Below are positions 4,560-37,130 of a DNA stretch of 40,276 nt, one piece after another. The position numbers and the translations under genes are program-made. Source of the stretch: a virus (Duplodnaviria > Heunggongvirae > Uroviricota > Caudoviricetes). The notes beneath the pieces are model-generated. The model had not been told where the DNA came from. It made no database searches and worked only from the letters and a program-made list of their open reading frames with translations. The stretch lies in the IMG/VR virus record IMGVR_UViG_2713896903_000005, one strand, 5' to 3'. The first letter of the stretch is position 1; each line of letters starts with the position of its first letter.

Positions 4560-4584
4560 CTGAAATAAATATCAGGCAATAGCT

Positions 4585-4815: not shown

Positions 4816-4836
4816 TATCCAGCCACAAACCTCTGT

Positions 4837-4860: not shown

Positions 4861-4965
4861 ATATCTATTCGTACCTCAAAGGTAATAAAAAACCAAATCT
4901 GGTTGATCTTTTTTTTGTGTCAGCACAAAATAACCGTAATCCCAATACTAATAACAGGGCTTACC

Positions 4966-5166: not shown

Positions 5167-5181
5167 TAGCGGAGATTAATC

Positions 5182-5997: not shown

Positions 5998-6779
5998 ACA
6001 ACGTTTTTACCGCGATACAAAACCGTGACGGAGAAGCCCTTTCTCGCATGTCAGGTTATGAGCATCAGTACACCAACAATGACAACGTGGTGAACATGTC
6101 AGCAGAGAGGCTTGTTGATGCCCTTTTCAAACAGCTGAAACAACTGTTTCCGGCGGCAGTGGTAACCAACCTGAAGACGCCAGAGCAGGAAGTTGCTGCA
6201 AAACAGCAGTGGATTGCTGCGTTTGCCGAAGGGGGGATCCGAACCCGTGAACAGGTTTCTGCTGGTATGCGCCACGCCCGCGCCAGTGAATCTCCGTTCT
6301 GGCCGTCGCCAGGGCAATTTATCAAGTGGTGCAAAGACAGCAAGATGGTTCTTGGCGTCACCATTGACGATGTGATGGCGGAGTTTCACCGGTACAGCAA
6401 GGAAAAAAGTTTATATCCTGGTGGTCCCGAAAGATTCCCGTGGCGGCATCCAGTTATGTACTGGGTCGTATGTGATACCCGCCGTGCAATGTATCAGCGC
6501 CAGCTTAGCGAGATTGAGGTTGAGAAACACGCGCGCAGGCTGCTCGATGATTGGGCGAAAAAGGTGGCTTCCGGACAGCAGATACCCGATCCGGTGATCA
6601 GCATACAAGCAAAGCCAGAACCCATGAGTACACCTCCGGACACAGGGAGAGACGTTTACCATCCACTAGGGCGAAGTTTCGGGTGCATGCCTAATGCCGC
6701 CACCCTGGGTGGAATAACACCGGCGCAGTGGCTGATGGAGGAATACAGGCGAGGAAAGGCGGCAGGATTTATCAAGTAA
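5979..6779 (+). CDS. replication protein P-like (DnaB helicase loader)
   Basis: Segment WIAAFAEGGIRTREQVSAGMRHARASESPFWPSPGQFIKWCKD parallels lambda P (WVLAFRENGITTMEQVNAGMRVARRQNRPFLPSPGQFVAWCRE); start 5979 versus GTG at 5994 unresolved. Confidence 0.75.
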   Translation: MGGFLVNNVFTAIQNRDGEALSRMSGYEHQYTNNDNVVNMSAERLVDALFKQLKQLFPAAVVTNLKTPEQEVAAKQQWIAAFAEGGIRTREQVSAGMRHARASESPFWPSPGQFIKWCKDSKMVLGVTIDDVMAEFHRYSKEKSLYPGGPERFPWRHPVMYWVVCDTRRAMYQRQLSEIEVEKHARRLLDDWAKKVASGQQIPDPVISIQAKPEPMSTPPDTGRDVYHPLGRSFGCMPNAATLGGITPAQWLMEEYRRGKAAGFIK

Positions 6780-6816
6780 TACCAGCGCGATAGCGCATTT
6801 TTTTACGCCCCAATAG

Positions 6817-6831
6817 TTACCTATTAGGTAA
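6817..6831. promoter_or_regulatory. operator-like palindrome TTACCTATTAGGTAA
   Basis: Perfect site, part of the 17-bp palindrome GTTACCTATTAGGTAAC, upstream of a candidate promoter. Confidence 0.5.
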
Positions 6832-6850
6832 CAAAATATTCTAAAATCTA

Positions 6851-6879
6851 TTGATTTCGTGTCTTATGTGGTTTTTAAT
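6851..6879 (+). promoter_or_regulatory. candidate promoter for the nin-like operon
   Basis: -35 TTGATT (6851..6856), 17-nt spacer, -10 TTTAAT (6874..6879); operator-like sites upstream and immediately downstream. Confidence 0.35.
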
Positions 6880-6893
6880 TACCTTAGAGGTAA
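6879..6893. promoter_or_regulatory. operator-like palindrome TTACCTTAGAGGTAA
   Basis: Perfect site overlapping the predicted start site and the SD of the 6897 gene. Confidence 0.45.
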
Positions 6894-6896
6894 ATC

Positions 6897-7241
6897 ATGA
6901 GAAAACAGATACAGGCTCTTGGTCGACTCAAAACAGGCCAGATGAACAAAACAGAATCTGCGTATTGCCAGCACCTTGAGCAGCGTAAACGTGCAGGGGA
7001 AATCGCCTGGTATCGATTCGAGGGTATCAAGCTACGGTTAGCTGACAACACGTTCTATACGCCCGATTTTGCTGTGATGCTCGCCACCGGCGAGATGGAA
7101 CTGCACGAAGTGAAAGGTTTCTGGACCGACGACGCCAGGGTGAAAACCAAAGTCGCCGCAGATCAGTATCCGTTCCGAATCATCGGGGTAACGGTTAAGC
7201 CAAAGAAAGCAGGTGGTGGCTGGAACATCGAAGAGTTCTGA
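6897..7241 (+). CDS. DUF1064-like phage protein (predicted PD-(D/E)XK-type nuclease)
   Basis: 114 aa; YTPDF...ELHEVKG pattern resembles D...E.K nuclease cores found in this phage family. Confidence 0.5.
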   Translation: MRKQIQALGRLKTGQMNKTESAYCQHLEQRKRAGEIAWYRFEGIKLRLADNTFYTPDFAVMLATGEMELHEVKGFWTDDARVKTKVAADQYPFRIIGVTVKPKKAGGGWNIEEF

Positions 7242-7302
7242 ATCGACGATCTTTTTAGTTATCAATGTAATCAATAAGTTATGTGGATAAGCGAGGGTAA
7301 AG

Positions 7303-7923
7303 ATGGAAAGTAATATCAAAGGGTTAGTTTCCGCCGGGCATGAGATGGCTTCGGAACTAAAAGCAGAATGTGGTGCCGTTGATATGCGCAGTGTGGCAAA
7401 GCTGATCAGCGATTTGGCAACGCAACTGGAAGTGCAACTGGTGCGTGCTAATGCGCTGGCCGAAGACCACCAGAGAGCGATTGAGTCAATTAAGCAGGCT
7501 GATGCAGCTGTTAAGTTGGCACACGAGAAGTTTTCGGCGCTGGCTGCGGAGAATGCGGCGCTGAAGTCTGCACACCCTCAGCAATTCGGTCAGAAAATGA
7601 TGGATGCATTGGTTGCATATGAGGAATGCCAGGACGATGTACCAGAAAGAGGAATGCTTAATGCGTTCTTCATCCTTCGTGACAGTGTTTGCATTGACAC
7701 TCCTGCTACTGGCGCTTTCCTGGCTGAAGTGCGGGCGCAGGGGGTGGATGCTGCTATAGAAGCTGCAAAAAATCTGGTGGCCCAAGAATATGAGTATAAG
7801 GATTTCAAAGCGGCGCAGAGTGATTGCTGTATGCACCTTGGTTCAGACCTGGTAGGGAAGGTTGAAATGACTGAGTGGTTAGTTGACTTTGCTGCCCAGC
7901 TTCGCAAAGGAGGCAACCAGTGA
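7303..7923 (+). CDS. hypothetical protein, possibly Ea22-like
   Basis: 206 aa, helix-rich; position and composition resemble ead/Ea22-like lambdoid accessory proteins; weak. Confidence 0.4.
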   Translation: MESNIKGLVSAGHEMASELKAECGAVDMRSVAKLISDLATQLEVQLVRANALAEDHQRAIESIKQADAAVKLAHEKFSALAAENAALKSAHPQQFGQKMMDALVAYEECQDDVPERGMLNAFFILRDSVCIDTPATGAFLAEVRAQGVDAAIEAAKNLVAQEYEYKDFKAAQSDCCMHLGSDLVGKVEMTEWLVDFAAQLRKGGNQ

Positions 7924-8726
7924 GCAAGATTGACTATCAGGCACTGCGTGAGGCGGCAGAGCGTGCAATTCCGGCAATGGAACGCCTGTTAATGTTGCCA
8001 GTTGATGATGATCTGATAAGCGAACAGGAACTTAAAGATAGCGGTGTTGATATTGATGCCCTCAACGCCTTCAAATTTCTGGCCGGACCAGAAACCGTGC
8101 TGGCACTACTGGATGAGATCAACGCATTAGAGGAAACGCGTATCAACGATGTTTGCCGTATTGCGGAACTAACAAAACAACTGGAGTTGGCAAAATCAAA
8201 ACTCAACGAGCAGCGTGAGTATTACGAAGGTGTTATCTCGGATGGGAGTAAGCGCATAGCAGAGTTGCAGACAAAATCTGCACCAGATTCATTTGGCATC
8301 ATCGGTGAAAATATTCGAACACAGGATAATCGAATAACGTCAGAACCTATGTTTTGTGTGTATCAAAAGCGCGAAATCGTTGTTGATTCTGATTATGACT
8401 ATGACCGGATTGTCTGGGTTGATGAAGATGGCAATGAAGCCAATAAACGCCAAAGTCGTCGTCTCGAACTACTTCACGAAAACTTTCGAGAGCCACCAGA
8501 AAAATGGCGGCGCGTTGCTGTGAAAGATATTGATGAATTCGTTACCTGCTGTTTCACCGAACAGGGTTGTAAAGACTACCTGGCAGCCAATGGTCACAAT
8601 CTTCGCTTGCCATTTATATATGTAAAAAACGGTTTCAGGAACGCTGAATATATCGGCATAAGAAACTGGCTTGCTGGCATTCGCATCAAAGGAGACGCAG
8701 GAGAGCAAAACGATGAAAAACCGTAA
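7920..8726 (+). CDS. ead/Ea22-like family protein
   Basis: 268 aa; N-terminus MSKIDYQALREAAERA typical of Ea22-like proteins; GTG start with strong SD (AAAGGAGG), GTGA overlap with the upstream gene. Confidence 0.5.
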   Translation: MSKIDYQALREAAERAIPAMERLLMLPVDDDLISEQELKDSGVDIDALNAFKFLAGPETVLALLDEINALEETRINDVCRIAELTKQLELAKSKLNEQREYYEGVISDGSKRIAELQTKSAPDSFGIIGENIRTQDNRITSEPMFCVYQKREIVVDSDYDYDRIVWVDEDGNEANKRQSRRLELLHENFREPPEKWRRVAVKDIDEFVTCCFTEQGCKDYLAANGHNLRLPFIYVKNGFRNAEYIGIRNWLAGIRIKGDAGEQNDEKP

Positions 8727-8889
8727 AGCAAAATTACTTCTTTTATCGCGTTCGACGGGGTACGAGAAGCTACCAATCAGCAATCACAAACGGGCGGTGA
8801 TCGGCATGTTTGGTAGGGTGGTATTCGCATTTAACTATAAAACCACCGCGTCGCGTAACAGACGAGAGAAGGGGTACGCAGTGCGATGA
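8713..8889 (+). CDS. small basic ORF (58 aa), hypothetical
   Basis: Begins MKNRKAK inside the 3' end of the Ea22-like gene; its first 25 bp recur as a direct repeat at the next ORF. Confidence 0.25.
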   Translation: MKNRKAKLLLLSRSTGYEKLPISNHKRAVIGMFGRVVFAFNYKTTASRNRREKGYAVR

Positions 8890-9071
8890 AAAACCGTAAA
8901 GCAAAAATTCTTTTGACCTGTAGAAATGCTCGCGGCGTCCAGCAATGGTTAAAACTCAGTAACCGCAGAATGGGGCTGTTCAAAAATACGGCTGATATTG
9001 TGATGTGTTCACTTAACAAGCCCAGCGCGGCGCAAAACCGCTGGAAAAACCACTTGCGCACTAAAGGATAG
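8886..9071 (+). CDS. small basic ORF (61 aa), hypothetical paralogue of the previous ORF
   Basis: Same MKNRKAK start; ATGA overlap with the previous ORF. Confidence 0.3.
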   Translation: MKNRKAKILLTCRNARGVQQWLKLSNRRMGLFKNTADIVMCSLNKPSAAQNRWKNHLRTKG

Positions 9072-9075
9072 TGAT

Positions 9076-9627
9076 ATGACCACTATAACCGATAAGAAAC
9101 AGTATCCAGGCGAGCAATATCTTAATGAGCTAATCACCAACATAGAGTTTGCTGCAAGGGCACCAGTTGAAGTCGTGAGAGCGATGGCAGCAGAGCTACA
9201 GAAGCGGCGCGAAGCTGATAGTGCAGAACCTGTAAGCCAAACTTACAAGTTGCCTCCCCTGTCATCCAACGAAGTAAACGACGCGGCATGGAAATTACAC
9301 AACATGCTGACTGAACACGGCCCGCTAAATGGGCGTCAGTTCAACAATCTGAAAGGTTGCTTCTATGAGGCATTAAAGGTCGCAATGCGCAACTCTCCGG
9401 TAACTCCGGATGGTTGGATAAGCTGTAGTGAGCGAATGCCGGATACCAAAATAGCCGTTCTTGTTGCTAGGGAGTTTGACAGGAAAGGTGACTGGCGAAT
9501 GAAATGGGCGACTTATATCCCGGGTCATCCTGACGCTAATGATGGGTGGCTAATTCCTGGGGCGTCGTGGAAACCGTCACACTGGATGCCGCTACCAGAA
9601 CCACCGCAAGAGGTTAACCGTGGCTAA
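9076..9627 (+). CDS. DUF551-domain phage protein
   Basis: C-terminal WISCSERMPD...W.P...SHWMPLPEPP pattern typical of DUF551; SD AAGGA. Confidence 0.65.
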   Translation: MTTITDKKQYPGEQYLNELITNIEFAARAPVEVVRAMAAELQKRREADSAEPVSQTYKLPPLSSNEVNDAAWKLHNMLTEHGPLNGRQFNNLKGCFYEALKVAMRNSPVTPDGWISCSERMPDTKIAVLVAREFDRKGDWRMKWATYIPGHPDANDGWLIPGASWKPSHWMPLPEPPQEVNRG

Positions 9628-9901
9628 CCTGCAGCTTGCCGTCAAAGGTGAATACTTCGACGCCATGATTCGCGGAGATAAAACGGAAGAGTATCGCCTG
9701 TGTAATGACTACTGGAATAAGCGAATCATGTTCCGGGAATATGACCGCCTGATTATCACAAAGGGATATCCGAAGCGCGACGACTTCAGTCGCAGAATTG
9801 ACGTCCCGTATAACGGATATGAAATAAAAACAATCACACATCCCCACTTCGGCGATAAACCGGTAAAGGTGTTCGCGGTAAAGGTAAATATTGATGGCTA
9901 A
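9620..9901 (+). CDS. hypothetical protein (possible ASCH/PUA-like fold)
   Basis: 93 aa; GTG start with SD AGAGGT; 8-nt overlap with the upstream gene. Confidence 0.4.
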   Translation: MANLQLAVKGEYFDAMIRGDKTEEYRLCNDYWNKRIMFREYDRLIITKGYPKRDDFSRRIDVPYNGYEIKTITHPHFGDKPVKVFAVKVNIDG

Positions 9902-10232
9902 ATCAGCAGCAGAGCGCAAAGCCGCTCAGAGAGCCAGACAAGCTGCATCTGGTGTGCGTAAGCTGGAAATTGTGCTTGATGCTCAGGAAATTGAAATGCT
10001 GGAGCGTAACTGTGCCACGCGTCGCCCCGGGCGTGCGCCTTACGAATTTGGTGAGTATATAGCGTTACTGATCCGCCAGGATGATGCACGCGTGCGCGGG
10101 CGTATAAAATCGATCAGCAGAAAACGTTGCGGTAAGTGCGGCGAGAGAGTTCCAGTTAATTCATGCCCGTGTAATGGTGACTCGCAATGCTGGGTGACTA
10201 AAGGCTGGCATGAAACGAAATTAATAGTGTGA
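9894..10232 (+). CDS. hypothetical protein with C-terminal Cys cluster
   Basis: ATG at 9894 (ORF-track TTG at 9891); CGKCG...CPC motif near the C-terminus. Confidence 0.4.
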   Translation: MAKSAAERKAAQRARQAASGVRKLEIVLDAQEIEMLERNCATRRPGRAPYEFGEYIALLIRQDDARVRGRIKSISRKRCGKCGERVPVNSCPCNGDSQCWVTKGWHETKLIV

Positions 10233-10240
10233 CATGTCAC
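10229..10240. repeat. 12-bp perfect palindrome GTGACATGTCAC (copy 1 of 3)
   Basis: Identical 12-mer also at 12680..12691 and 30539..30550; all three sit at gene or module junctions. Confidence 0.6.
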
Positions 10241-10249
10241 GAAGGTGTT

Positions 10250-10462
10250 ATGCCAAAAATACGCTACGACCTTGAAGATATGAGAGATAACTCAGCAAAT
10301 TTTCCGAAAGAGGTTAAATTTCTCATGCATAAGTATGGTTGCGCTAGGAGGGATATAGTTATCGACAGTCAGCACCCTTGCGGCGAGGATGTAATTTTCA
10401 TTCGCGGTAAATGGGAAGGGTATCTTGACGAGAGTTTTTACGATGAATTTGATGGACTTTGA
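10250..10462 (+). CDS. hypothetical small protein (70 aa)
   Basis: ATG at 10250 preceded by AAGGTG; the ORF-track GTG at 10229 lies inside the palindrome. Confidence 0.4.
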   Translation: MPKIRYDLEDMRDNSANFPKEVKFLMHKYGCARRDIVIDSQHPCGEDVIFIRGKWEGYLDESFYDEFDGL

Positions 10463-10467
10463 ATACT

Positions 10468-10493
10468 GCCGCCAACTATGGCGGCTTTATTTT
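10468..10493 (+). terminator. intrinsic terminator upstream of the packaging genes
   Basis: GCCGCC-AACTAT-GGCGGC hairpin followed by TTTATTTTG. Confidence 0.6.
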
Positions 10494-10504
10494 GCATGGT
10501 ACTA

Positions 10505-10519
10505 TTACCACAACGGTAA
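10505..10519. promoter_or_regulatory. operator-like palindrome TTACCACAACGGTAA
   Basis: Perfect site; an adjacent one-mismatch site at 10523..10537 ends at the terS start codon. Confidence 0.5.
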
Positions 10520-10536
10520 CTATTACCACGGTGGTT

Positions 10537-11133
10537 ATGATGCCTGCTGAACCTAAAACCTATAAACGCAAATCAACGCAATTTAAGCCACTAACAGCAA
10601 TGCAGGAGGCTTATTGCCAGTCATACATCAAAACGCCTGAAAACCAGACTCAGGCAGCGATTAACGCAGGATTCTCCCCAAATACAGCGGCAGTTAAAGC
10701 CAGTGTCATGATGCGCGATGAACGCATTCAAAAACGCATTGCCGAGTTGATGGAGGAGCGCAACAAACGAATGCGCGTCAGTGCTGATTACGTTCTCATG
10801 CGCCTGGTGGAGATCGACCAGATGGACGTGATCGACATCCTCAACGACGATGGGAGCCTTAAACCAATCCGTGAGTGGCCGAAAATCTGGCGCACTACGC
10901 TTAGTGGCTTTGATCTGTCATCGACCATCATGAACATGAACGAGGATTCGATAGAGACAATCCTCAAAAAAATTAAATGGCCTGACAAGGTGAAGAACCT
11001 TGAGCTGATTGGTAAGCATGTTGATGTCAACGCGTTCAAAGAACGCCTGGATGTTAATGTGAATGTGACAATTGCTGATCGCATAGCGGCAGCCAGGAAG
11101 CGACTCAAAGAACGTCAGGATGGTAATCAGTGA
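10537..11133 (+). CDS. terS: terminase small subunit
   Basis: Segment AYCQSYIKTPENQTQAAINAGFSPNTAAVKASVMMRDERIQKRI is typical of Terminase_2-type small subunits; ATG at 10537 chosen because the ORF-track TTG at 10459 would read through a terminator and operator sites. Confidence 0.7.
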   Translation: MMPAEPKTYKRKSTQFKPLTAMQEAYCQSYIKTPENQTQAAINAGFSPNTAAVKASVMMRDERIQKRIAELMEERNKRMRVSADYVLMRLVEIDQMDVIDILNDDGSLKPIREWPKIWRTTLSGFDLSSTIMNMNEDSIETILKKIKWPDKVKNLELIGKHVDVNAFKERLDVNVNVTIADRIAAARKRLKERQDGNQ

Positions 11134-12605
11134 CAGATACAGCGTTATCTCCTGAAGAGCAGTTGATCGAGGATATTGCAGGGTTCACTCACGATCCGCT
11201 TGGCTATGCCCTCTATGCGTTCCCGTGGGGGGAAGAGGGGACTGAACTGGCACATGCCACCGGCCCACGTCAGTGGCAGGCTGATGCGTTCCGAGAGATA
11301 CGTGATCACCTGCAGAATCCAGAGACGCGCTATCAGCCGCTTATGCTGGCACGCGCTTCTGGTCACGGTATTGGTAAATCCGCATTCATCTCAATGCTGA
11401 TCAACTGGGGCATGTCCACTTGCGAGGATTGTAAGGTCGTGGTGACCGCCAACACCGACAACCAGCTACGAACGAAGACCTGGCCGGAAATTATCAAGTG
11501 GTCGAACCTTGCTATCACGAAAGACTGGTTTACCTGTACCGCTACCGCGATGTACAGCAATGACCCTGGGCACGACAAGCGGTGGCGAGCTGACGCAATC
11601 CCCTGGTCTGAGCACAACACTGAGGCATTCGCCGGACTACACAACGAGCGAAAACGCATCATCGTGGTATTCGATGAAGCGTCGAACATTGCGGATCTGG
11701 TGTGGGAAGTTGCTGAGGGTGCGCTTACGGACGAAGACACTGAGATTATCTGGGTGGCGTTCGGAAACCCTACACGTAACACCGGACGTTTCCGCGAATG
11801 TTTCCGCAAATATAAACACCGCTGGAAAACTGCGCAGATTGACAGCCGGACGGTGGAAGGCACTAACAAACAGCAGTTGCAGAAATGGGTTGATGACTAC
11901 GGGGAAGACAGCGACTTCGTTAAAATCCGTGTGCGCGGCATATTCCCTGATGCATCTGAATTGCAGTTTATCCCTACCGGTCTTACTGATGAGGCAATGA
12001 AACGGGTGGTAACCGCTGCGCAGGTGGCGCATGCTCCGGTGATAATCGGTGTTGACCCGGCATATTCAGGCGTTGATGACGCGGTGATATACCTGCGGCA
12101 GGGGCTACACAGTAAGGTGCTGTGGACTGGCAACAAGACTACCGACGATCTGATTATGGCGAAGCGTATCGCTGACTTTGAAGACCAGTATCAGGCTGAC
12201 GCAGTGTTCATCGACTTCGGTTACGGAACCGGTTTGAAGTCAATCGGTGATGGCTGGGGACGTACATGGCAACTTGTTCCGTTCGGCGGTGCGTCCACTG
12301 ACCCGCAGATGCTTAACAAGCGTGGGGAGATGTTCAACTCATGTAAGACATGGCTGAGGCTGGGCGGCATGCTGGATGACCAGGAAACTGCAGACGACCT
12401 GTCGGCGGCAGAGTACAAAGTTCGTGTGGACGGTAAAATCGTTATCGAACCGAAGGAAGATATCAAAGAGCGTCTTGGGCGTTCGCCGGGTAAAGGCGAT
12501 GCGCTACTGCTGACGTTTGCTTTCCCGGTGTCGAAGCGCCTGCGACTTCCCGGGCAGCAGAACCAGCAAGGAAAGGCCATTACAGATTACGATCCCTATG
12601 CTTAA
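11130..12605 (+). CDS. terL: terminase large subunit
   Basis: 491 aa; Walker A-like ARASGHGIGKS and Walker B-like IIVVFDEAS; GTG start with SD overlapping the terS stop. Confidence 0.85.
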   Translation: MTDTALSPEEQLIEDIAGFTHDPLGYALYAFPWGEEGTELAHATGPRQWQADAFREIRDHLQNPETRYQPLMLARASGHGIGKSAFISMLINWGMSTCEDCKVVVTANTDNQLRTKTWPEIIKWSNLAITKDWFTCTATAMYSNDPGHDKRWRADAIPWSEHNTEAFAGLHNERKRIIVVFDEASNIADLVWEVAEGALTDEDTEIIWVAFGNPTRNTGRFRECFRKYKHRWKTAQIDSRTVEGTNKQQLQKWVDDYGEDSDFVKIRVRGIFPDASELQFIPTGLTDEAMKRVVTAAQVAHAPVIIGVDPAYSGVDDAVIYLRQGLHSKVLWTGNKTTDDLIMAKRIADFEDQYQADAVFIDFGYGTGLKSIGDGWGRTWQLVPFGGASTDPQMLNKRGEMFNSCKTWLRLGGMLDDQETADDLSAAEYKVRVDGKIVIEPKEDIKERLGRSPGKGDALLLTFAFPVSKRLRLPGQQNQQGKAITDYDPYA

Positions 12606-12679
12606 TCCGCTGGAGGGGATAATGCTGCTGATATCCTCTGATGAGGGTAAAACAAAGCCAGCTCATAGGCTGGCTGTTT

Positions 12680-12691
12680 GTGACATGTCAC
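12680..12691. repeat. 12-bp perfect palindrome GTGACATGTCAC (copy 2 of 3)
   Basis: Between the convergent terL and gp49-like genes, immediately after hairpin AGCCAGC-N6-GCTGGCT (12656..12675). Confidence 0.6.
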
Positions 12692-12695
12692 GGTG

Positions 12696-13076
12696 TTATT
12701 GCTCGCTTAACTTCTGCTTCAGCAAGTAACCTTCGAGCATCCAGATTTTGTTTACAGCATTCTGCCGGGCAATCTTCCGACCAATTTCTGCATCAAAGTT
12801 TTCCGGGCTTGCACAGGCACTCTCTCCGGTGACGGTGAAGCCATTCTTCAGCACCAGTACGCAGAAAGTGAGCAACTTCAATGGTGATAAATCACGATCG
12901 CCTTCTTCTGGTTTCTCTCTGCCACAATATTCGTTGCTGGAAATGGCACCATTTCGTCCATCATAAGCAGTAAAGTAATGCTCGCTTTTAATCACGTCTT
13001 CGATGTGCTGAGGAGTGATTCGCGGGGCTGTTTTGCCTTTCTCAACGATTTCTTTTTCGATTTGCTGGTCGTTCAT
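12696..13076 (-). CDS. Gp49-like (Phage_gp49_66 family) protein, moron
   Basis: 126 aa; C-terminal VTGESACASPENFDAEIGRKIARQNAVNKIWMLEGY pattern typical of the gp49/gene-66 family; opposite orientation to the packaging and head genes. Confidence 0.55.
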   Translation of the reverse strand: MNDQQIEKEIVEKGKTAPRITPQHIEDVIKSEHYFTAYDGRNGAISSNEYCGREKPEEGDRDLSPLKLLTFCVLVLKNGFTVTGESACASPENFDAEIGRKIARQNAVNKIWMLEGYLLKQKLSEQ

Positions 13077-13085
13077 AATCTCACC

Positions 13086-13111
13086 TTAAAAAAATGCCCG
13101 GCGAACCGGGC
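13086..13111 (-). terminator. terminator-like hairpin between the tRNA and the gp49-like gene
   Basis: Minus strand: GCCCGG-TTCG-CCGGGC followed by ATTTTTTT, only about 10 nt before the gp49-like SD and start; a second hairpin plus T-run lies at about 13190..13231. Confidence 0.45.
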
Positions 13112-13274
13112 GAACTGGAAGCAATGAGTTATGCCTTCCGTGGCTGTACTGGTTTACAGCATGAAGTCATCGCAATGGCGTCCTGCTGTAAAAAGGGCGG
13201 TGATAGTCCTTCAAGGGAAACCATCACCGCCAATCACCTGGAACTTCTGGTATTACGGTCCTTAGGCGTGATTC

Positions 13275-13351
13275 TGGCGTGGCATGCAGGATTCGAACCT
13301 GCGACCAACCGCTTAGAAGGCGGTTGCTCTGTCCAGCTGAGCTAATGCCAC
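13275..13351 (-). tRNA. tRNA-Arg (anticodon UCU)
   Basis: 77-nt cloverleaf read by hand on the minus strand: acceptor GTGGCAT/ATGCCAC, D-stem GCTC/GAGC, anticodon stem ACCGC/GCGGT with loop CTTCTAA, T-stem GCAGG/CCTGC with loop TTCGAAT, discriminator G, encoded CCA. Confidence 0.85.
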
Positions 13352-13673
13352 AACGCTGAGAGCACTTAGCCTGTTAAGGCGCCACACTTTGTCGCGGCTC
13401 CATAAATGCTCTCATCGTTGTACCATCGTCTCTTCCGAGGCGTCACACCGAATCGCCGGGATGGTGAATCCCCGTGCGCGGAATAAAACCGCTCGACTTG
13501 CACATTCCGGCTACCTGGTTCGTTTGCCCGAGCAAGGGAGGGTTCCCCTTAAACGTATCCAGACCGCTATCGGCGCATGTGCCATACGCCGTACTGCTCA
13601 AAATAAAAGCTCACTCCACCTGTTCAATTTAACGACAAGCCAGTCAGGTTAGTAACCGGAATGAACTCTTTGG

Positions 13674-13688
13674 TTACCCGAAAGGTAA
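13674..13688. promoter_or_regulatory. operator-like palindrome TTACCCGAAAGGTAA
   Basis: Perfect site in the 430-bp noncoding region upstream of the portal/head operon. Confidence 0.5.
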
Positions 13689-30804: not shown

Positions 30805-30830
30805 CACAAAAAAGCCCGCGGCGCGGGCTA
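30805..30830 (-). terminator. intrinsic terminator ending the leftward antirepressor operon
   Basis: Minus strand: GCCCGCG-C-CGCGGGC hairpin followed by TTTTTTGTGG. Confidence 0.6.
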
Positions 30831-31343
30831 TTCTTCATCTTGATTATTTTTATTTGGTCTGTCGTTTCTACCAAGAATAAATACAGAAGCCAAACCAATT
30901 AGATCAACAGTTATTAATGTACCAGCAAATACTGTATCACCGTTCCAAGCAAAAAGAGTGGCAATAGCAAGAATAAGAATTGTGACAGTGAAAGCCATCC
31001 ACTGACCGCGCTTATCTTTATATATTGCACCAGACATAGCCATATATTCCATGCTATGACGATGAGCCTGTTCCTTTTCGCTCCTGACCATTATTCTTTC
31101 GGCTCCGTTATCTACGATTTCGTTGTATTCACGGAGCATTGATGGTGGAGGCAGAGGTCCGCTAAAAGAACTCTTCTTTACAATCGCCATGAACTGAGGC
31201 CGTTCAAGTAAGCGTTGGAGAATGGCTGGGTTTTCAACCAACTCTCCTTCGATTTCCTTGACCTTTTCCTCAGTTACCTTTTCCTGCTCATCACCGGGCT
31301 GTGGCAAGCTGACGTCTTGCTTTTCTTGCACGCAGTCGCTCAT
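30828..31343 (-). CDS. DUF2335-like membrane protein
   Basis: 171 aa; soluble N-terminal region with PPPSMLREYNEIVDNGAERIMVRSEKEQAHRH followed by two C-terminal transmembrane helices. Confidence 0.5.
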   Translation of the reverse strand: MSDCVQEKQDVSLPQPGDEQEKVTEEKVKEIEGELVENPAILQRLLERPQFMAIVKKSSFSGPLPPPSMLREYNEIVDNGAERIMVRSEKEQAHRHSMEYMAMSGAIYKDKRGQWMAFTVTILILAIATLFAWNGDTVFAGTLITVDLIGLASVFILGRNDRPNKNNQDEE

Positions 31344-31506
31344 ATGGCCTCATACTTATCCTTAAGTCATCACCTACAGCCTGAAAGTCATTTCTTATTG
31401 ACTCTGCATCTGAATTACTAGATAGCAGCTTTGTATAATCTGTAGATGGAACCAAATCCAAGATACTACCTGCTGCACGCATAATCCTGCGGGTTGAGCG
31501 CAACAT
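31291..31506 (-). CDS. hypothetical small protein (71 aa)
   Basis: Strong SD AGGAGGT 5 nt before the ATG at 31506; 3' end overlaps the start of the DUF2335-like gene by about 50 nt in another frame. Confidence 0.35.
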   Translation of the reverse strand: MLRSTRRIMRAAGSILDLVPSTDYTKLLSSNSDAESIRNDFQAVGDDLRISMRPYERLRARKARRQLATAR

Positions 31507-31565
31507 ATCGTACCTCCTATTTAACCAAAGGCTTAATTACCTTTGGAGTAAACTTAATTAAAAAA

Positions 31566-31775
31566 CTACTTCCTTACAGTGGCAAGATCCTGTTTAACAA
31601 TTGCAGCAGCGAGACGACGCATCTCCTTAACTTCAGGAAGCTCAGAAATTTGCTGTGATGAAATATATACACCACCACGCTTGTTAACCTGCGCTGACGC
31701 CGGAACTTCTGCATTTTTTGCCTGAGGGCTGAGTGCATTATCCCTCGTTTTTGTACGAGCGGACCAAAATCCCAT
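31566..31775 (-). CDS. hypothetical small protein (69 aa)
   Basis: Strong SD GAGGAGGAG before the ATG at 31775; promoter-like TTGCAG-17-TACTAT upstream with an operator-like palindrome over the start site. Confidence 0.45.
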   Translation of the reverse strand: MGFWSARTKTRDNALSPQAKNAEVPASAQVNKRGGVYISSQQISELPEVKEMRRLAAAIVKQDLATVRK

Positions 31776-31801
31776 ATCTCCTCCTCATGTAAACACATGG
31801 T

Positions 31802-31816
31802 TTACCTTTAGGGTAA
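31802..31816. promoter_or_regulatory. operator-like palindrome TTACCTTTAGGGTAA
   Basis: Perfect site immediately downstream of a minus-strand -10-like TACTAT (31822..31817). Confidence 0.5.
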
Positions 31817-31888
31817 TAGTACGCTATTCACCCCCAGTCTGCAATCTGTACAGAATTATTTAAAGGCACATCCCTGTGCCGCCGCCCG

Positions 31889-32599
31889 TCAGAAGAACCC
31901 TGCCTTGTCGTTGATGTACTCCGCGTGCGTCTGGATATCACGCAGGCATTTGCTCACACCAACGATGTAGCAGAACATGGTGGTCAGCTCCGCCGCCGCG
32001 CCCGATACGTCGTGCCCGTCGTCCTGCAACTGGTTTAGCAGATTCATCAGCAGTGAGTTCTCCGTCAGGCCGAGAACACCAGACGGCGAGTGAATCAGGC
32101 TGCGGTAGCCGGGCTTCAGCGGGGCGCTGTAGGTTTTGTTCTCTATCTTCATTGCCTGCATCACTGCTGACGCCGTGGCGTTGGCTACCTGGTCGGCAAC
32201 CATCTTTATGCGTTCTTCCTGCGGGAGCGAGTTTTTAATGTAACTTCCGGTGCGGCGGATCTGAGGAAGTACCTCACCTGTAACCCATTTACGAAAGCGG
32301 TAGGGGATAGTGCCTGGTGTCACTGCGTCGCGGCAGCGGAGGATCAGTGTGTAGAGGCCTGACTCGGAGATGATGTTGATCTCTTTTACTCGGCGGTCAA
32401 AAATTACACGATGTTCATGCCCTATGTTGAACATAGACCTTTCATCATCATCCAGTTTTTCAAGTGCTTGGGTGACGTTTTGGATACGCAGCGCACTACA
32501 AACGTCTTGGGCTACAAACCATGGTTGGCCATCGATAATGATGGAACGGATAGGGTTAACAGATTCAAATTTGAAGATGGCAGTTTGAGCATTAGCCAT
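31889..32599 (-). CDS. Bro-N domain antirepressor
   Basis: N-terminal Bro-N-like segment (FKFESVNPIRSIIIDGQPWFVAQDVCSAL); C-terminal domain shared with the short 33748..34005 product; ATG at 32599 with SD GGAG (ORF-track start 32614). Confidence 0.65.
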   Translation of the reverse strand: MANAQTAIFKFESVNPIRSIIIDGQPWFVAQDVCSALRIQNVTQALEKLDDDERSMFNIGHEHRVIFDRRVKEINIISESGLYTLILRCRDAVTPGTIPYRFRKWVTGEVLPQIRRTGSYIKNSLPQEERIKMVADQVANATASAVMQAMKIENKTYSAPLKPGYRSLIHSPSGVLGLTENSLLMNLLNQLQDDGHDVSGAAAELTTMFCYIVGVSKCLRDIQTHAEYINDKAGFF

Positions 32600-32753
32600 G
32601 GTGGTTATCTCCACTTAGTGATTTTAATCACCACCGCAACGCCAATTACTGGTGGTGAACTGGACAAGGTTGGCGTACCGGCCTAAGTGGTACCGGCGTC
32701 CTTTCGGACCCCTGCCCAGCCCACCATAATTCGGATATAGCTGTGCTTAACGC

Positions 32754-32777
32754 ATAAAAAAACCACGTCTGGCGTGG
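32754..32777 (-). terminator. intrinsic terminator or attenuator inside the antirepressor leader
   Basis: Minus strand: CCACG-CCAGA-CGTGG hairpin followed by TTTTTTTAT, about 150 nt upstream of the Bro-N start. Confidence 0.5.
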
Positions 32778-32868
32778 TATGCGCCACTTAGTAACTCGGG
32801 ACGCCAATCCCGGCACTGGATTTTGCCAGTGCCCGATTACTATGGCACAAGAGGAGTGCTATGTAAAT

Positions 32869-32883
32869 TTACCGCAAAGGTAA
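32869..32883. promoter_or_regulatory. operator-like palindrome TTACCGCAAAGGTAA
   Basis: Perfect site overlapping the predicted start site of a minus-strand promoter (-35 TTGATT, -10 TTATCA region, about 32890..32918). Confidence 0.5.
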
Positions 32884-32961
32884 TGATAAACGCGAAGAAA
32901 TATTAAAATCAACCGTATTTGGTTGATTGCGTTTAACGCTTGATCACCTGAAAGCAAGATA

Positions 32962-32976
32962 TTACCTTTAAGGTAA
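32962..32976. promoter_or_regulatory. operator-like palindrome TTACCTTTAAGGTAA
   Basis: Perfect site 20 nt upstream of the 32997 start codon. Confidence 0.5.
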
Positions 32977-32996
32977 TGTTATTGTGAGGAAAAGCA

Positions 32997-33725
32997 ATGG
33001 AAGTTTTCTGGATAGTTGTTGGTGTGGTTGCGGTGATTATTTACGTTATCAACCAGAACAAGACTAAGATCTCTGATCGTACGGTCGTTAATCATAACAA
33101 AACGATAAAGACCGAAGATGGGGAGATAACGATTAATCGTACACAGGTGATAGAACACACCTCCACTCAGTTTCAAAAAACGGGAGATAATGCGCCTAAT
33201 ATTTCCGTACCTCCTGCTTATGATAGCGCGGTAATCCAGACATATTATAAACAGCAGGAGTTAGCAAAAGAGAGGCAACTGATTCAGCCAAAGCCATTTA
33301 CAGCAGAGCTTCCACCTGGAGTGTCAACGCGTCCGGCATATCATGGAAGATTCCCTGGTGATGACGTATCGTCTCAGTCACCTAAAAAAGCACCTCAGGC
33401 AGTATCAGAGCCAGCAAGAATACCTTCTGTATCGCCGTCAAAAGAAGAATCAGCTAACGAAGTTTCAAGTGCCCGCAAGCAGTGTTTGCGATGCAGAATA
33501 AACCTTCCATATGAAAAATTCAGGAAATCGTCAAAAAATCCAGATGGATTGACTAAGTGGTGTGCAAGGTGTCTAGATGGCCCAAAGAATACACGTCATA
33601 TGAAGTGGTGCCCAATTTGTAATGTCCGCAGAAAACGAACCAGCTTTTACCCTAATAATCAAAATGCGGACGGCTTAATGGCATGGTGCAAAACGTGCTG
33701 GGATGAGCACAAAGCGAAACGATAG
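32997..33725 (+). CDS. membrane-anchored protein with duplicated Cys-rich zinc-ribbon-like motifs
   Basis: 242 aa; N-terminal transmembrane helix (FWIVVGVVAVIIYVI), Pro/Ser-rich linker, two C-terminal repeats (CLRCR...DGLTKWCARC and CPIC...DGLMAWCKTC); AT-rich. Confidence 0.5.
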   Translation: MEVFWIVVGVVAVIIYVINQNKTKISDRTVVNHNKTIKTEDGEITINRTQVIEHTSTQFQKTGDNAPNISVPPAYDSAVIQTYYKQQELAKERQLIQPKPFTAELPPGVSTRPAYHGRFPGDDVSSQSPKKAPQAVSEPARIPSVSPSKEESANEVSSARKQCLRCRINLPYEKFRKSSKNPDGLTKWCARCLDGPKNTRHMKWCPICNVRRKRTSFYPNNQNADGLMAWCKTCWDEHKAKR

Positions 33726-33750
33726 GCCGCTCTTGCGGCCTTTAAATTTA
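33725..33750. terminator. terminator hairpin between convergent genes
   Basis: GGCCGC-TCTT-GCGGCC hairpin followed by TTTAAATTT on the plus strand and a T-rich run on the minus strand. Confidence 0.55.
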
Positions 33751-34005
33751 CCGGGTTTGTTTTCGTAATTGTTCGGCACAATAGTCGAGATGTGTTTGCA
33801 GATCCTGCATAGACATCTGCGAGCTGGTGACGTAGTTAATCAGTGCAGTCAGTTCGGCAAGTGGGCCATCGACATTAAATCCATCCTTATCGAGATCCCG
33901 GAGTAATTTCATCAAGTGCGATCCCTCCACCAGTGACCTGACGCCTCCCGGCGTGTGAATCCTTTCGGTAAATCCGTCTTCCAGTGGATAGTGATACTGC
34001 TGCAT
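33748..34005 (-). CDS. short antirepressor-like protein, probably SOS-regulated
   Basis: About 85 aa from the ATG at 34005 (SD GGAGAAG); matches the C-terminal domain of the Bro-N antirepressor (TPGGVRSLVEGSHLMKLLRDLDKDGFNVDGPLAELT vs SPSGVLGLTENSLLMNLLNQLQDDGHDVSGAAAELT); a LexA box lies 20-40 nt upstream. Confidence 0.5.
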   Translation of the reverse strand: MQQYHYPLEDGFTERIHTPGGVRSLVEGSHLMKLLRDLDKDGFNVDGPLAELTALINYVTSSQMSMQDLQTHLDYCAEQLRKQTR

Positions 34006-34024
34006 CTTATCTTCTCCATGCAAT

Positions 34025-34044
34025 AACTGTATATTTATACAGTA
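34025..34044. promoter_or_regulatory. LexA (SOS) box
   Basis: AACTGTATATTTATACAGTA matches the CTGT-N8-ACAG consensus with an AT-rich spacer; overlaps the promoter region of the short antirepressor gene. Confidence 0.7.
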
Positions 34045-34081
34045 GCAAATAATTTGTTTGCTATCCAGCACGTTTTGCAAA

Positions 34082-34096
34082 TTACCTGAAAGGTAA
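34082..34096. promoter_or_regulatory. operator-like palindrome TTACCTGAAAGGTAA
   Basis: Perfect site between the antirepressor gene and the tailspike gene. Confidence 0.5.
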
Positions 34097-34200
34097 TATC
34101 TATTCGTATTTATGGGTTATCTATCCATATATGATTTTTAAGGTAATAGAATAACCGGATATGCGGCGCAACGGGTGCTGCGACTATCTGGAGATTTAAC

Positions 34201-36111
34201 ATGACGGTCTCAACAGAAGTTGACCACAACGAATATACAGGTAACGGTGTTACAACTACGTTCCCTTATACCTTTAGGATTTTCCAGAAATCTGATCTGG
34301 TAGTACAAGTGGTTGACCTTGATGAAAATATCACAGTTCTTGCTCTTGATACTGATTACACAGTTACCGGGGCGGGAGGGTATAACGGTGGTAATGTAAT
34401 TCTGTCGAAGGCGTTGGCTAACGGTTATCAGATTTCTATGTATCGAGAGCTACCGGTTACGCAGGAAACCGATCTGCGCAATCAGGGTAAGTTCTTTGCA
34501 GAGGTGCATGAGGATGCGTTTGATAAGCTAACGATGCTGATCCAGCAGGTTCGCAGTTTGTTTACCTTGGCGCTTCGCAAGCCATCATTCGTGGCAAACT
34601 ATTATGATGCTTTGAATAATTACATCCGTAATCTTCGTGACCCGTCTCATCCTCAGGATGCAGCCACCAAGAATTATGTAGATACGCTGGCCAACGGAAA
34701 CCTAAACAGGGTGCTAAGAGTTCCAGAAGCATCCATACCTTCTCTTCCTGACGTTAATGGAAGGAGAAATAAAGCATTAAGTTTTGATGCATCTGGTAAC
34801 CCCTTGCTTTTAGATCCTGCAGGCAGTGGATTATGGGGATATGTTCTTATCGATTCGTTCCAGGCTGGAGCAAAAATATCAACCCGTTACGAAGCATTGC
34901 ATTGGCCTCTTCCTGATGGGGATGGTGAATATTATCGTTGGGATGGAGTATTGCCTAAGGAAGTCCCTGCAGGATCAACCCCTGACTCAACTGGTGGAAT
35001 AGGAATTGGGGCGTGGGTTGGTATAGGTGATGCATCATTAAGATCTGACTTGGCAGATAATCTAATCCCAGGAGCAAGCTTGGTATCAATACATTCTGGG
35101 ACGGTTAACGATGCTCTTGTGTATAACACTCCAGAAATGTTTGGCGCGCGACCAGACGGTTCTGTAGATGCATCTTCAGCTATTATTGCAGCAGGAAAGG
35201 ATGGCATTGGTAGTTATGGTGTAAATAAAGTTCTCCTCACAGGAGGTTCAGAAAGAACATTTGATATACAGTCTGATACAAATTCTCTTATCCTGTCATT
35301 CGGAAGACCATTTATTAATGGTATGGGAAATGGTGAGATAATCGATGTAAGAAGAACGATAAATCGCCCTATTAATAATAAAGGCCATTCTTCTTATCTT
35401 ATAGCTCACCGTGGGTATGTGAATGTACATGCTGAAAATACGGTCGCATCAATTAGTCTTGCGGCAAAATCTTGCCATGCTGTAGAGGTTGATGTTCAGA
35501 CCACATCTGACGGTCGATATGTTGTTTTTCATGACTTTACCACTGGTAATTTAATGAATAATGATCTAACTGTAGCAACATCAACCCTAGAACAACTTCA
35601 GGCATTAAAATATAAGAAAATGATTGGTACAAAATATGAGTACCATTGCAGGATTCCTACATTTGAGCAAGTTCTTGACGCTTGCCGTAGAACAGGCACT
35701 GAAATTTGGTGGGAGATTATGTCAACCAATACACCAGATCAAGTTGATGGTATGATACAGGCCGTCATTGATTATGGAATGGAACACAATGCTGTTTGCA
35801 CCACCGGAGTAGTATCTAACTTATATCTTCTCCGCAATAAATCTGAAGATATGAGAGTTCAATTAACTTCATCCAGCGCGACCCCCGATGAAACAGTGAA
35901 AGATATGGTTCGTCATCTTCGCCATATTGGTAATGGAACTCTTGCAATTGAGTATATTGACATGACAAACAGGCCATGGATACCTGAATATTGTTACCAA
36001 CGAGGCGTGGATATTGTTGTTTACACATTGTTTGCGTCTTATCAGGCGGTTCAAGCAAGAAACATCGGGATTCGGCAGATCATGTGTAACCAACAAGTAG
36101 GAGTTGAATAA
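34201..36111 (+). CDS. tailspike with C-terminal glycerophosphodiester phosphodiesterase (GDPD)-like domain
   Basis: N-terminus (NEYTGNGVTTTFPYTFRIF) matches the conserved particle-binding domain of podovirus tail fibres and tailspikes; C-terminal region carries GDPD-type motifs (IAHRG...ENT...VEVDV...DGRYVVFHD, later RIPTFEQVL...EIWWEI); SD GGAG. Confidence 0.7.
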   Translation: MTVSTEVDHNEYTGNGVTTTFPYTFRIFQKSDLVVQVVDLDENITVLALDTDYTVTGAGGYNGGNVILSKALANGYQISMYRELPVTQETDLRNQGKFFAEVHEDAFDKLTMLIQQVRSLFTLALRKPSFVANYYDALNNYIRNLRDPSHPQDAATKNYVDTLANGNLNRVLRVPEASIPSLPDVNGRRNKALSFDASGNPLLLDPAGSGLWGYVLIDSFQAGAKISTRYEALHWPLPDGDGEYYRWDGVLPKEVPAGSTPDSTGGIGIGAWVGIGDASLRSDLADNLIPGASLVSIHSGTVNDALVYNTPEMFGARPDGSVDASSAIIAAGKDGIGSYGVNKVLLTGGSERTFDIQSDTNSLILSFGRPFINGMGNGEIIDVRRTINRPINNKGHSSYLIAHRGYVNVHAENTVASISLAAKSCHAVEVDVQTTSDGRYVVFHDFTTGNLMNNDLTVATSTLEQLQALKYKKMIGTKYEYHCRIPTFEQVLDACRRTGTEIWWEIMSTNTPDQVDGMIQAVIDYGMEHNAVCTTGVVSNLYLLRNKSEDMRVQLTSSSATPDETVKDMVRHLRHIGNGTLAIEYIDMTNRPWIPEYCYQRGVDIVVYTLFASYQAVQARNIGIRQIMCNQQVGVE

Positions 36112-36923
36112 TGAATATTTCAAGAATGGGGTGGAAACATTACGTAACCTCTGGAACTGGTACAATAAATATCAGTGAAGATAGAGAAACTTTATACATG
36201 TCTGCAAGCGCTGGGCTAACAACTTTAGCAACAACGGAAATTGTTGCTGATGCTGAGAGTGAAATTGAGGTGACATTCGAGGCTAGATATATAGCCAATT
36301 CAATCACAGGTACTGATTATGCGATTTGTGGTATTTATTATTTTGGATTTCAGAACGAGAACGGTGGTGGTTTAGGTAACAGCTTCTCGGAGTTGCGCAT
36401 AACATCTAACGAGCTACAAACATATACGGCGAAATTGATTGTGCCAGCTACTAAAAACGAACTTAATTCTAATAGAATTGAGATCAGGTTTAATATTCCT
36501 AACAATGCTGACGGTTCTCTTTATGTTATTGGATATCCACGGGTGTCTATTAAGCGTTCTGCAATTGGGGTTTCGAGAATTATCGCAAAAGGTATCATAG
36601 ATCTCGTTCAGAATTCCGGCTCTGATGAAGTAGTTGTTAAGTTAATTAGTTGTAACAATGTTTCCAATGTTACGATGACATCAAGTAATCAAAATGTAGA
36701 AATAAATCTTGAAAGTTTTCCGAGAATTTACCCGGAAACGCCAATGTTTACCGCTACGATGATTCCGCAGGGAGATGAAGTTCCTGGAATGTATCAGCCC
36801 TTATATTTAACGTTTGATGCAAAAAGCAAAAAACTAACAATGGCATTTAAAAATGCATCTGGATCACGAATTGCAATATATCAAGCAAGACATCTGCGGT
36901 TTAACTTCACAATAACAATCTGA
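36111..36923 (+). CDS. hypothetical protein translationally coupled to the tailspike
   Basis: 270 aa; TAATG stop/start overlap with the tailspike gene and SD AGGAG; AT-rich, beta-rich. Confidence 0.45.
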   Translation: MNISRMGWKHYVTSGTGTINISEDRETLYMSASAGLTTLATTEIVADAESEIEVTFEARYIANSITGTDYAICGIYYFGFQNENGGGLGNSFSELRITSNELQTYTAKLIVPATKNELNSNRIEIRFNIPNNADGSLYVIGYPRVSIKRSAIGVSRIIAKGIIDLVQNSGSDEVVVKLISCNNVSNVTMTSSNQNVEINLESFPRIYPETPMFTATMIPQGDEVPGMYQPLYLTFDAKSKKLTMAFKNASGSRIAIYQARHLRFNFTITI

Positions 36924-37130
36924 GTTTACACAAACACAATCACAAACCCATTATGGCTCATATTGGAGAAAGATTAGCACAAAACACCCCATAACCTTAA
37001 CAAGGTATGATTCTGGGAAAATAACCCAAAAGGTAATTTCCACAATGGTGTTAGCTTGTTTTAATACATATACGGTTTGTTGTGTATAATTGACTCACCA
37101 ACTAAGGGGGTTATTCATGTACAGTAAACG

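Follow-up and report, generated by a model that had tools for sequence, protein, structure and literature searches.

A predicted tandem of IsrK-like and C4-type RNAs upstream of the Bro-N antirepressor gene of an epsilon15/phiV10-like phage

The C4 antisense RNA of bacteriophage P1 is processed by RNase P. The annotated P1 record places this 77-nt RNA behind the C1 operator, two promoters and the sites a1 (7 nt) and b1 (8 nt), with a2 three nucleotides after C4 and b2 ten nucleotides before the ATG of icd, over the Shine-Dalgarno sequence. In Gifsy-1, IsrK is a structural homologue of P4 seqA, and the processed RNA STnc1160 that lies downstream is complementary to IsrK (PMC4825925). Pairing of IsrK with the read-through transcript at G28-C162 and G31-C159 has been proven there by compensatory mutation, and AnrP translation rose 139-fold when IsrK was provided in trans (PMC4825925). 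Gifsy-1 is the only case in which Hfq binding by IsrK and its trans-activation of antirepressor translation are known (PMC4825925). The Rfam C4 and isrK models also detect relatives of P4 CI and seqA (PMC10111431), and the c4 and c4-a1b1 motifs were defined by Weinberg et al. 2010. With PMC4825925, these reports mean that the kinship of these RNAs is already in the literature.

We have analysed a 40,276-nt stretch of phage DNA, referred to here as the window, which belongs to an epsilon15/phiV10-like E. coli podovirus (Uetakevirus) and has ~98% identity to PAS61, phiv142-3 and ZX5 over most of its first 23 kb. Read from its sequence, the leader before the Bro-N antirepressor gene is a tandem of an IsrK-like RNA with a C4 antisense RNA of the P1 type, together with their putative target sites. 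The module is a regulatory switch of an already described kind (P1 immI, P4 immunity, Gifsy-1 IsrK) and not a new class of mechanism. It is real and functional-looking, and its RNA genes are unmarked in all the phage and RefSeq records inspected.

In P1/P7 immI, and in the predicted layout of the window, an operator, two tandem promoters, a1, b1, C4, a2 and b2 follow each other in the same order on one strand; the Rfam C4 model matches both loci, and both carry an antirepressor as cargo. Unlike P1, where ant expression requires translation of icd, the window has no icd-like ORF: the interval from the end of C4 (32648) to the ant ATG (32599) is free of ORFs, which puts b2 right at the ribosome-binding site of ant. 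In the window, the a1/b1 region matches isrK and is closed by an intrinsic terminator of its own, whereas the P1 locus gave only a c4-a1b1 match in its place. The putative operator of the window is a palindrome for another repressor, in contrast to the asymmetric C1 site of P1. The antirepressors are also unrelated: P1 Ant1 gave no significant match to Bro-N, and the Stx and Gifsy-1 antirepressors are likewise unrelated to it. As the cargo differs in this way among phages, the RNA module behaves as a portable cassette.

Gifsy-1 (IsrK/STnc1160/orf45-anrP) has isrK, C4 and c4-a1b1 matches in the same order upstream of its antirepressor, with a1 and a' identical in sequence to those of the window, the same proximal promoter register, and an IsrK ended by an intrinsic terminator. 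The experimentally studied Gifsy-1 residues can be placed on this layout: G28 and G31 fall in a1 (UUGGCGU), C159 and C162 in a' (ACGCCAA), A107 belongs to the AUG at the C4 5' end, and the C4 basal stem contains the pair G114-C175. The two loci differ in b' (CGGUGAU in Gifsy-1, CCACUUAG in the window) and in antirepressor family, and the window has neither an orf45 coupled to the antirepressor nor an isrJ downstream, while it adds a putative repressor operator and a distal promoter. Its locus adjoins a podovirus tail-spike gene, whereas that of Gifsy-1 follows the lambdoid Q antiterminator. The local particulars of the window are thus the lack of icd or orf45, b2 on the antirepressor ribosome-binding site, the palindromic operator with the distal promoter, and Bro-N cargo beside the tail-spike gene. 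Satellite phage P4 (CI RNA, seqA, seqC), compared here by description, is alike in having a processed RNA between two target copies, and unlike in that CI acts via premature transcription termination and controls replication genes.

Layout of the leader RNA

A search of the whole window with Rfam at gathering thresholds gave three matches, namely a tRNA-Arg elsewhere, isrK and C4 antisense RNA; there is no tRNA or tmRNA in the leader region. The isrK match scored 67.2 bits (gathering score 50, E = 2e-12, model positions 1-77), and that to C4 was full-length at 66 bits (gathering score 45, E = 9e-11, model positions 1-87). With two curated families matched on the minus strand, the leader can be read as two RNA genes in tandem (Table 1). 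A permissive scan added c4-a1b1 (RF03163) at 32845..32793; its 44.3 bits fall slightly short of the gathering score (46.7), and the match overlaps the first two IsrK hairpins; the Rfam description of this family is "a1, b1 targets of C4 antisense RNA".

Table 1. Features of the Bro-N leader module, in coordinates of the window
Feature	Position	Strand	Basis or remark
Distal promoter-like site TTGATT-18-TATCAT	32883..32912	-	promoter-like scan; predicted start ~32876
Operator-like palindrome TTACC-N5-GGTAA	32869..32883	.	motif count; conservation in relatives
Proximal promoter (candidate) TTTACA-17-CATAGT, TG upstream of -10	32839..32867	-	start = IsrK 5' end, 32832
IsrK-like small RNA: two 5' hairpins, linker, intrinsic terminator	32756..32832	-	Rfam RF01394
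a1 UUGGCGU, loop and 3' side of IsrK hairpin 2	32801..32807	-	complementary to a'
b1 CUAAGUGG, IsrK linker	32784..32791	-	complementary to b'
Intrinsic terminator ACCACG-CCAGA-CGUGGU and U-run	32756..32778	-	stem -7.6 kcal/mol; last helix of isrK model
C4-type antisense RNA gene	32648..32731	-	Rfam RF01695
b' CCACUUAG, loop of C4 hairpin 2	32683..32690	-	exact complement to b1 and b2
a' ACGCCAA, single-stranded C4 junction	32670..32676	-	exact complement to a1 and a2
a2 UUGGCGU	32639..32645	-	2 nt past Rfam C4 match, ~4 nt past predicted mature 3' end
Conserved GGUGGUGA box	32628..32635	-	predicted to pair with 3' strand of C4 stem or with ACCACC at start codon
b2 CUAAGUGG	32611..32618 (32609..32618 with Shine-Dalgarno)	-	overlaps Shine-Dalgarno GGAG, 32612..32609
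Bro-N antirepressor gene, 236 aa, ATG at 32599	31889..32599	-	Pfam Bro-N, E = 1.6e-19

The 253-nt leader from 32832 to 32580 has a predicted fold of -105.8 kcal/mol (z = -5.6 against 200 shuffles), in which IsrK and C4 form separate domains; taken alone against shuffles, C4 gave z = -5.0 and IsrK z = -3.0. These values and the Rfam E-values put the features well beyond chance. The C4 part folds as a long basal stem enclosing two hairpins, in agreement with the model consensus, and a' and b' are predicted to be unpaired in it, each with two exact complements (7 nt and 8 nt, respectively). Since the annotated P1 C4 RNA is 77 nt long, mature C4 is predicted at ~32725..32650, 76 nt with a tRNA-like ACCA end (32653..32650). 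The Bro-N ATG follows ~50 nt past the C4 domain, preceded by GGAG. Between them lies the conserved GGUGGUGA box, which 16 of the 17 loci in the complementarity scan possess (14 have the full 8-mer and 3 a 7-mer) and which is missing from P1. Gifsy-1 has the box as well, and it shows no covariation across loci.

The original prediction had described a noncoding leader of about 270 nt with several stable hairpins and an internal terminator, yielding either a separate small RNA or an attenuator. The length agrees well with the ~277 nt between the distal start (~32876) and the Bro-N ATG, and the terminator is present as described (stem 32778..32762, T-run to 32756). The loose hairpins are better replaced by two defined RNA genes and four short target sites. 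One of them, GGCACTGG-N6-CCAGTGCC (as RNA, GGCACUGG-N6-CCAGUGCC), does exist, at 32833..32812 (-), ~9 nt off the 32803..32824 first given, and IsrK hairpin 2 (CGGGA-UUGGCG-UCCCG) lies downstream of it. The other, TCACCACC-N15-GGTGGTGA, lies where it had been placed (32658..32628), but the fold predicted for the entire leader lacks it because the C4 basal stem uses its 5' arm as 3' strand, and as such it may be an alternative pairing at most. The sequence also bears out a discrete small RNA ending at the internal terminator, which forms the last helix of the isrK model; the size of this RNA would be ~77 nt from the proximal promoter, and the predicted 120 nt would arise only from the distal one. 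An antiterminator overlapping b1 (UGGCG/CGCCA in the window) was considered as a further element and rejected as not convincingly conserved in phiV10-type sequences.

It is very unlikely that the leader is a cis attenuator or a single ~120-nt small RNA comparable with P22 sar/ant, despite the terminator inside a long leader and the length that a transcript from the distal promoter to this terminator would have. The region after the terminator is a conserved, covarying RNA gene with trans-type targets on both sides, which a plain attenuator fails to explain, and the terminator, being the 3' end of IsrK, would split the output into short IsrK and a read-through RNA with C4 and ant. In P22 immI (sar, Arc, Mnt, Ant) antirepressor control is likewise at the RNA level and in a secondary immunity region, but sar is read off the other strand, over the start of ant, and works without separate copies of its target. 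A sar-like antisense RNA was ruled out for the window by the lack of any plus-strand promoter-like site in 31400..33200, and the putative regulator here lies on the same strand as its target and upstream of it. The proper analogues are P1 c4, P4 CI/seqA and Gifsy-1 IsrK; P22 sar is the wrong one. The broader proposal that the antirepressor gene is gated at the RNA level is nevertheless supported by these sequence features.

The ZX5 record labels part of C4 as a 37-aa "ash family protein", and Pfam Phage_ASH matches translations of the isrK-C4 region in Hafnia and Yersinia phages. That the region encodes an Ash-like or icd-like small protein instead of RNA genes is, however, scarcely credible. 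The spanning ORF of the window (56 aa, 32816..32646) has no Pfam match and the reading frame is not conserved, on which grounds the coding reading was ruled out; moreover, substitutions among the loci keep base pairs rather than codons.

Promoters and operator

Two promoter-like sites precede the IsrK-like RNA. The distal one, which matches the consensus at 9 of 12 positions, is the promoter of the original prediction; it exists, but it is the distal member of a pair, and its position is kept solely in Uetakevirus-type loci. There, its -10 hexamer ends at -51 from the IsrK +1 in 9 of 10 loci, window included; the site is absent at the locus of Klebsiella phage ST512-KPC3phi13.3. The proximal register, with a -10 hexamer ending 7 nt before the IsrK +1, is found in 15 of 16 loci, including Gifsy-1 (TTGACA-18-TATATT). 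A promoter-like scan of the 1.8-kb region gave 2 sites where 2.8 were expected, and because this count is not above expectation our promoter calls rest on conserved position in relatives.

The operator-like palindrome, TTACC-TTTGC-GGTAA in the leader, is likewise present where it had been described, over the expected distal start. With up to one mismatch, TTACC-N5-GGTAA occurs 16 times in the window against 0.53 expected, and two of the copies lie between the gene for a 194-aa HTH protein (3846..4430, -) and a small divergent cro-like gene. The over-represented palindrome is therefore found both in the repressor/cro intergenic region and at the leader promoter. In relatives its half-sites are conserved while the spacer is free, the distal -10 abuts it at a fixed position, and the distal promoter and palindrome together are confined to Uetakevirus-type loci. 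An inverted repeat of the TTACC-N5-GGTAA type is reportedly described as a repressor operator in the epsilon15 genome paper; our search of the literature for a published epsilon15 or phiV10 operator returned nothing usable. These sequence patterns suggest that the prophage repressor probably has TTACC-N5-GGTAA as its operator, and that in the lysogen the distal promoter would be repressed, comparable with the P1 C1 operator, which controls the upstream one of two c4 promoters. The palindrome overlaps the last base of the distal -10 hexamer and stops two bases short of the proximal -35 hexamer, on its upstream side; as it leaves the latter uncovered, repression of the proximal promoter is uncertain.

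Covariation of target sites among relatives

For comparison we collected 17 related loci from Uetakeviruses of Escherichia, Enterobacter and Klebsiella, TL-2011b, Hafnia and Yersinia phages, two Stx phages, two Salmonella phages, P1 and Gifsy-1. Rfam detects C4 in all 17, and isrK with C4 in tandem upstream of an antirepressor-type gene in 15, Gifsy-1 among them; SW-37 has C4 and isrJ, with no isrK match at gathering score. Sequence similar to a 441-bp region covering the module, the promoter and the Bro-N start was found in 472 of 5,426 complete E. coli genomes, some with two to three copies, and in 241 phage records, many of them of Shiga-toxin phages.

The helices of both RNAs are kept and covary in 15 loci, so that the folding and covariation check called for with the original prediction came out in favour of structured RNA. 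The 17-bp C4 basal stem is 100% paired, with four pairs changed on both sides, and IsrK hairpin 1 reaches 99% pairing, with 5 of its 7 pairs showing compensatory changes. The a'-a2 helix is also 100% paired in these loci, with double changes at 4 of 7 pairs. Column-based counting gave no such result for b'-b2, since MAFFT misaligned these regions and left helices 7-8 just 40-45% paired; because the b regions vary in length and misalign, this approach was dropped, and b pairing was tested instead by a search for exact words in each locus and by comparison of cognate and non-cognate duplex energies.

Over the 17 loci a' takes four forms (ACGCCAA, AGACCAA, GUCUCAA and CUGUCAA) and b' at least nine, and a1/a2 and b1/b2 track a' and b' phage by phage, as exact complements in most loci; the exceptions concern b, where four loci match at one site only or via G-U wobble. 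Cognate b duplexes have mean energies of -11.5 (b1) and -11.0 kcal/mol (b2), against -4.4 and -5.7 kcal/mol for non-cognate ones, and the b1 duplex of the window reaches -12.6 kcal/mol with its cognate loop against -4.8 kcal/mol with the best non-cognate loop. In 200,000 shuffles of the flanking sequences, the full set of four sites was never reproduced. The three-way covariation among the loci is strong evidence that the pairings are under selection.

The a' heptamer is common to many phages, and specificity would therefore rest mostly on b. In the window itself the a-type is the common one that Stx phages and Gifsy-1 also have, and the b-type is one that among the sampled phages otherwise occurs only in phiv142-3.

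Regulation of the antirepressor gene

We consider it probable that the locus is an RNA immunity module of the P1 immI type, in which C4 blocks translation of the antirepressor and IsrK is a target mimic that relieves this block. Transcription would start from two tandem promoters, with the operator of the phage repressor overlapping the distal one, and most transcripts would end at the intrinsic terminator to give the ~77-nt IsrK-like RNA. Read-through would produce an RNA containing the C4-like RNA and the antirepressor mRNA, from which C4 is probably excised at its tRNA-like stem and ACCA end. Loop b' and junction a' of C4 would then pair with b2 and a2 before the Bro-N gene and, as b2 overlaps the Shine-Dalgarno sequence, we propose that the antirepressor is not translated when C4 is bound. 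IsrK bears exact copies of a1 and b1 and is therefore proposed to compete for C4, such that an excess of IsrK would free the ribosome-binding site and allow the antirepressor to be made. Family membership, complementarities, covariation and shared geometry are what is seen here, and we infer from these the processing of C4, the direction of each regulatory effect and the binding of the repressor. The scheme is supported by an order and spacing nearly equal to those of the annotated P1 operon, by the position in a1 and a' of the residues proven to pair in Gifsy-1, and by the action of a close cargo homologue as an antirepressor (PMC9782041). This homologue is ORF4 of ZX5, to which the Bro-N protein is 80.7% identical, and its overexpression pushed the phage toward lytic growth and lowered both lysogeny and repressor transcription (PMC9782041).

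A simple decoy model fits poorly with one observation from Gifsy-1, since constitutive expression of STnc1160, the C4-like RNA, strengthened the toxicity of IsrK and did not weaken it (PMC4825925). The authors of that study explain their data by a conformational switch of the long transcript and translational coupling through orf45, and not by titration of C4 (PMC4825925). In their published model the long transcript is inactive through pairing in cis of the IsrK sequences with downstream sequences, short IsrK opens it in trans, and antirepressor translation is coupled to that of an upstream ORF whose AUG lies in the C4 5' end. This model has experimental support in Gifsy-1 (PMC4825925), and the window retains both the AUG (AUUAUGGUGGG) and the a1/a' pairing. 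However, the corresponding ORF has only 14 codons here and stops at a UAG in the b' loop, which leaves 83 nt to the ant ATG. Its length varies from 3 to 271 codons among 18 loci, and Gifsy-1 is the sole locus where it ends at the downstream start codon. Coupling through an upstream ORF is therefore not transferable to our locus, where the predicted fold also keeps IsrK and C4 as separate domains, and we regard the Gifsy-1 model as improbable for the window.

Termination control of the P4 type, either as an alternative to the P1-type reading or as an extra layer, is a tentative possibility. A C4/CI-like RNA would here pair with nascent a1/b1 and enforce termination at the IsrK terminator; pairing at a2/b2 might also promote Rho-dependent termination, and immunity would act mainly via ant transcription and less via translation. 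This would be consistent with the detection of P4 seqA and CI relatives by the two Rfam models, with the end of b1 just 5 nt ahead of the terminator stem, and with the similar suggestion made by the Gifsy-1 authors for STnc1160 (PMC4825925), in whose experiments IsrK in trans raised a transcriptional fusion 8-fold (PMC4825925). In contrast, that effect was far smaller than the translational one of 139-fold (PMC4825925), a conserved antiterminator structure was looked for and not found here, and b2 lies over the Shine-Dalgarno sequence as it does in P1, for which the annotation gives a translation block as the primary effect. We retain translational control of the P1 type as the probable mechanism, with a P4-style effect on termination as a possible second layer.

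The a and b sites can be viewed as a modular two-part address, with four a-types, at least nine b-types and several combinations in the sampled phages. Diffusible IsrK could then derepress the antirepressors of co-resident prophages with the same address; we think this unlikely, but if true, prophages within one cell would be joined in a shared induction circuit. The value of the present findings lies mainly in annotation and interpretation, and no new kind of mechanism is involved. The covarying a and b sites offer a clean natural test set for the specificity of RNA-based immunity, and the module suggests how antirepressor-driven induction is probably restrained in epsilon15/phiV10-like prophages.

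Candidate operators and the genes beside them

The palindrome TTACC-N5-GGTAA occurs 16 times in the window when up to one mismatch is allowed, against 0.53 copies expected, and all of these sites fall within 3712..13688 and 31537..37036. Most lie directly 5' of genes, which may be on either strand, and they look like a genome-wide set of candidate operators for the 194-aa HTH protein (3846..4430), the putative prophage repressor. Such a set would be comparable to that of P1, which has many C1 operators.

Several copies accompany genes near the antirepressor locus. Two small ORFs 3' of the antirepressor gene, neither of which gave a match in a Pfam search, each have a palindrome upstream (31802..31816 and 31537..31551), and another copy (32962..32976) lies within the upstream region of the divergent 242-aa gene. 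The product of the latter carries a hydrophobic segment near its N-terminus and is rich in Cys toward the C-terminus, with a weak match to Stc1, under the cut-off. The gene is present in TL-2011b and absent from phiV10 and ZX5, which have a 258-bp ORF in its place.

Features of the window and of related loci
Feature	Position	Strand	Remarks
TTACC-N5-GGTAA, example sites	4486..4500, 6817..6831, 32962..32976, 34082..34096		
tRNA-Arg	13275..13351	minus	anticodon TCT; Rfam 71.7 bits; ARAGORN
DUF2335 membrane protein gene	31343..30828		follows the 69-aa and 71-aa ORFs
Two small ORFs downstream of antirepressor	region 31291..31816	minus	69 aa, 31775..31566; 71 aa, 31506..31291
isrK/c4-a1b1 overlap	window 32845..32756; L013 and L016 782..871; L019 1031..1120		
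242-aa gene	32997..33725	plus	divergent from isrK promoter region
Small ORF	33748..34080	minus	probable start ATG at 34004
Tail-spike gene	34201..36111	plus	
Ash family CDSs	L005 (ZX5) 972..1085; L011 (Hafnia phage yong2) 588..1271; L012 (Yersinia phage) 939..1226		

RNA genes and their annotation

Matches to Rfam isrK (RF01394) and c4-a1b1 (RF03163) overlap in the window and in three related loci, and the two families are two descriptions of one element. The Rfam scan output places c4-a1b1 in clan CL00128 together with C4, and gives isrK no clan. The annotations of ZX5, Hafnia phage yong2 and a Yersinia phage each include a CDS named Ash family protein that overlaps the isrK-C4 RNA genes, and translations across this region match Pfam Phage_ASH (PF10554); the Ash protein family may be largely conserved RNA sequence read as protein. 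The phage genome itself also encodes a tRNA-Arg.

Tail-spike and antirepressor domains

The tail spike combines an epsilon15-type N-terminus and a Tail_spike_N domain with a glycerophosphodiester phosphodiesterase (GDPD) domain at its C-terminal end (Pfam E = 3e-22). For a tail spike this is an uncommon type of receptor-degrading domain, and it suggests that the phage receptor may be a surface polysaccharide with phosphodiester linkages.

The small ORF at 33748..34080, with its own operator palindrome immediately 5' (34082..34096), resembles the Bro-N antirepressor in the C-terminal domain only, where 74 aa align at 42% identity (E = 7e-19). It could be an antirepressor module that has been truncated or that serves as a decoy. 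The phiv142-3 antirepressor has only its C-terminal half in common with the window protein (31889..32599; 72.8% over 125 aa) and differs at the N-terminus. The C4 RNAs of the two phages have identical b' and different a' target-complementary segments. The comparison points to shuffling of both domains and specificity at the antirepressor locus.
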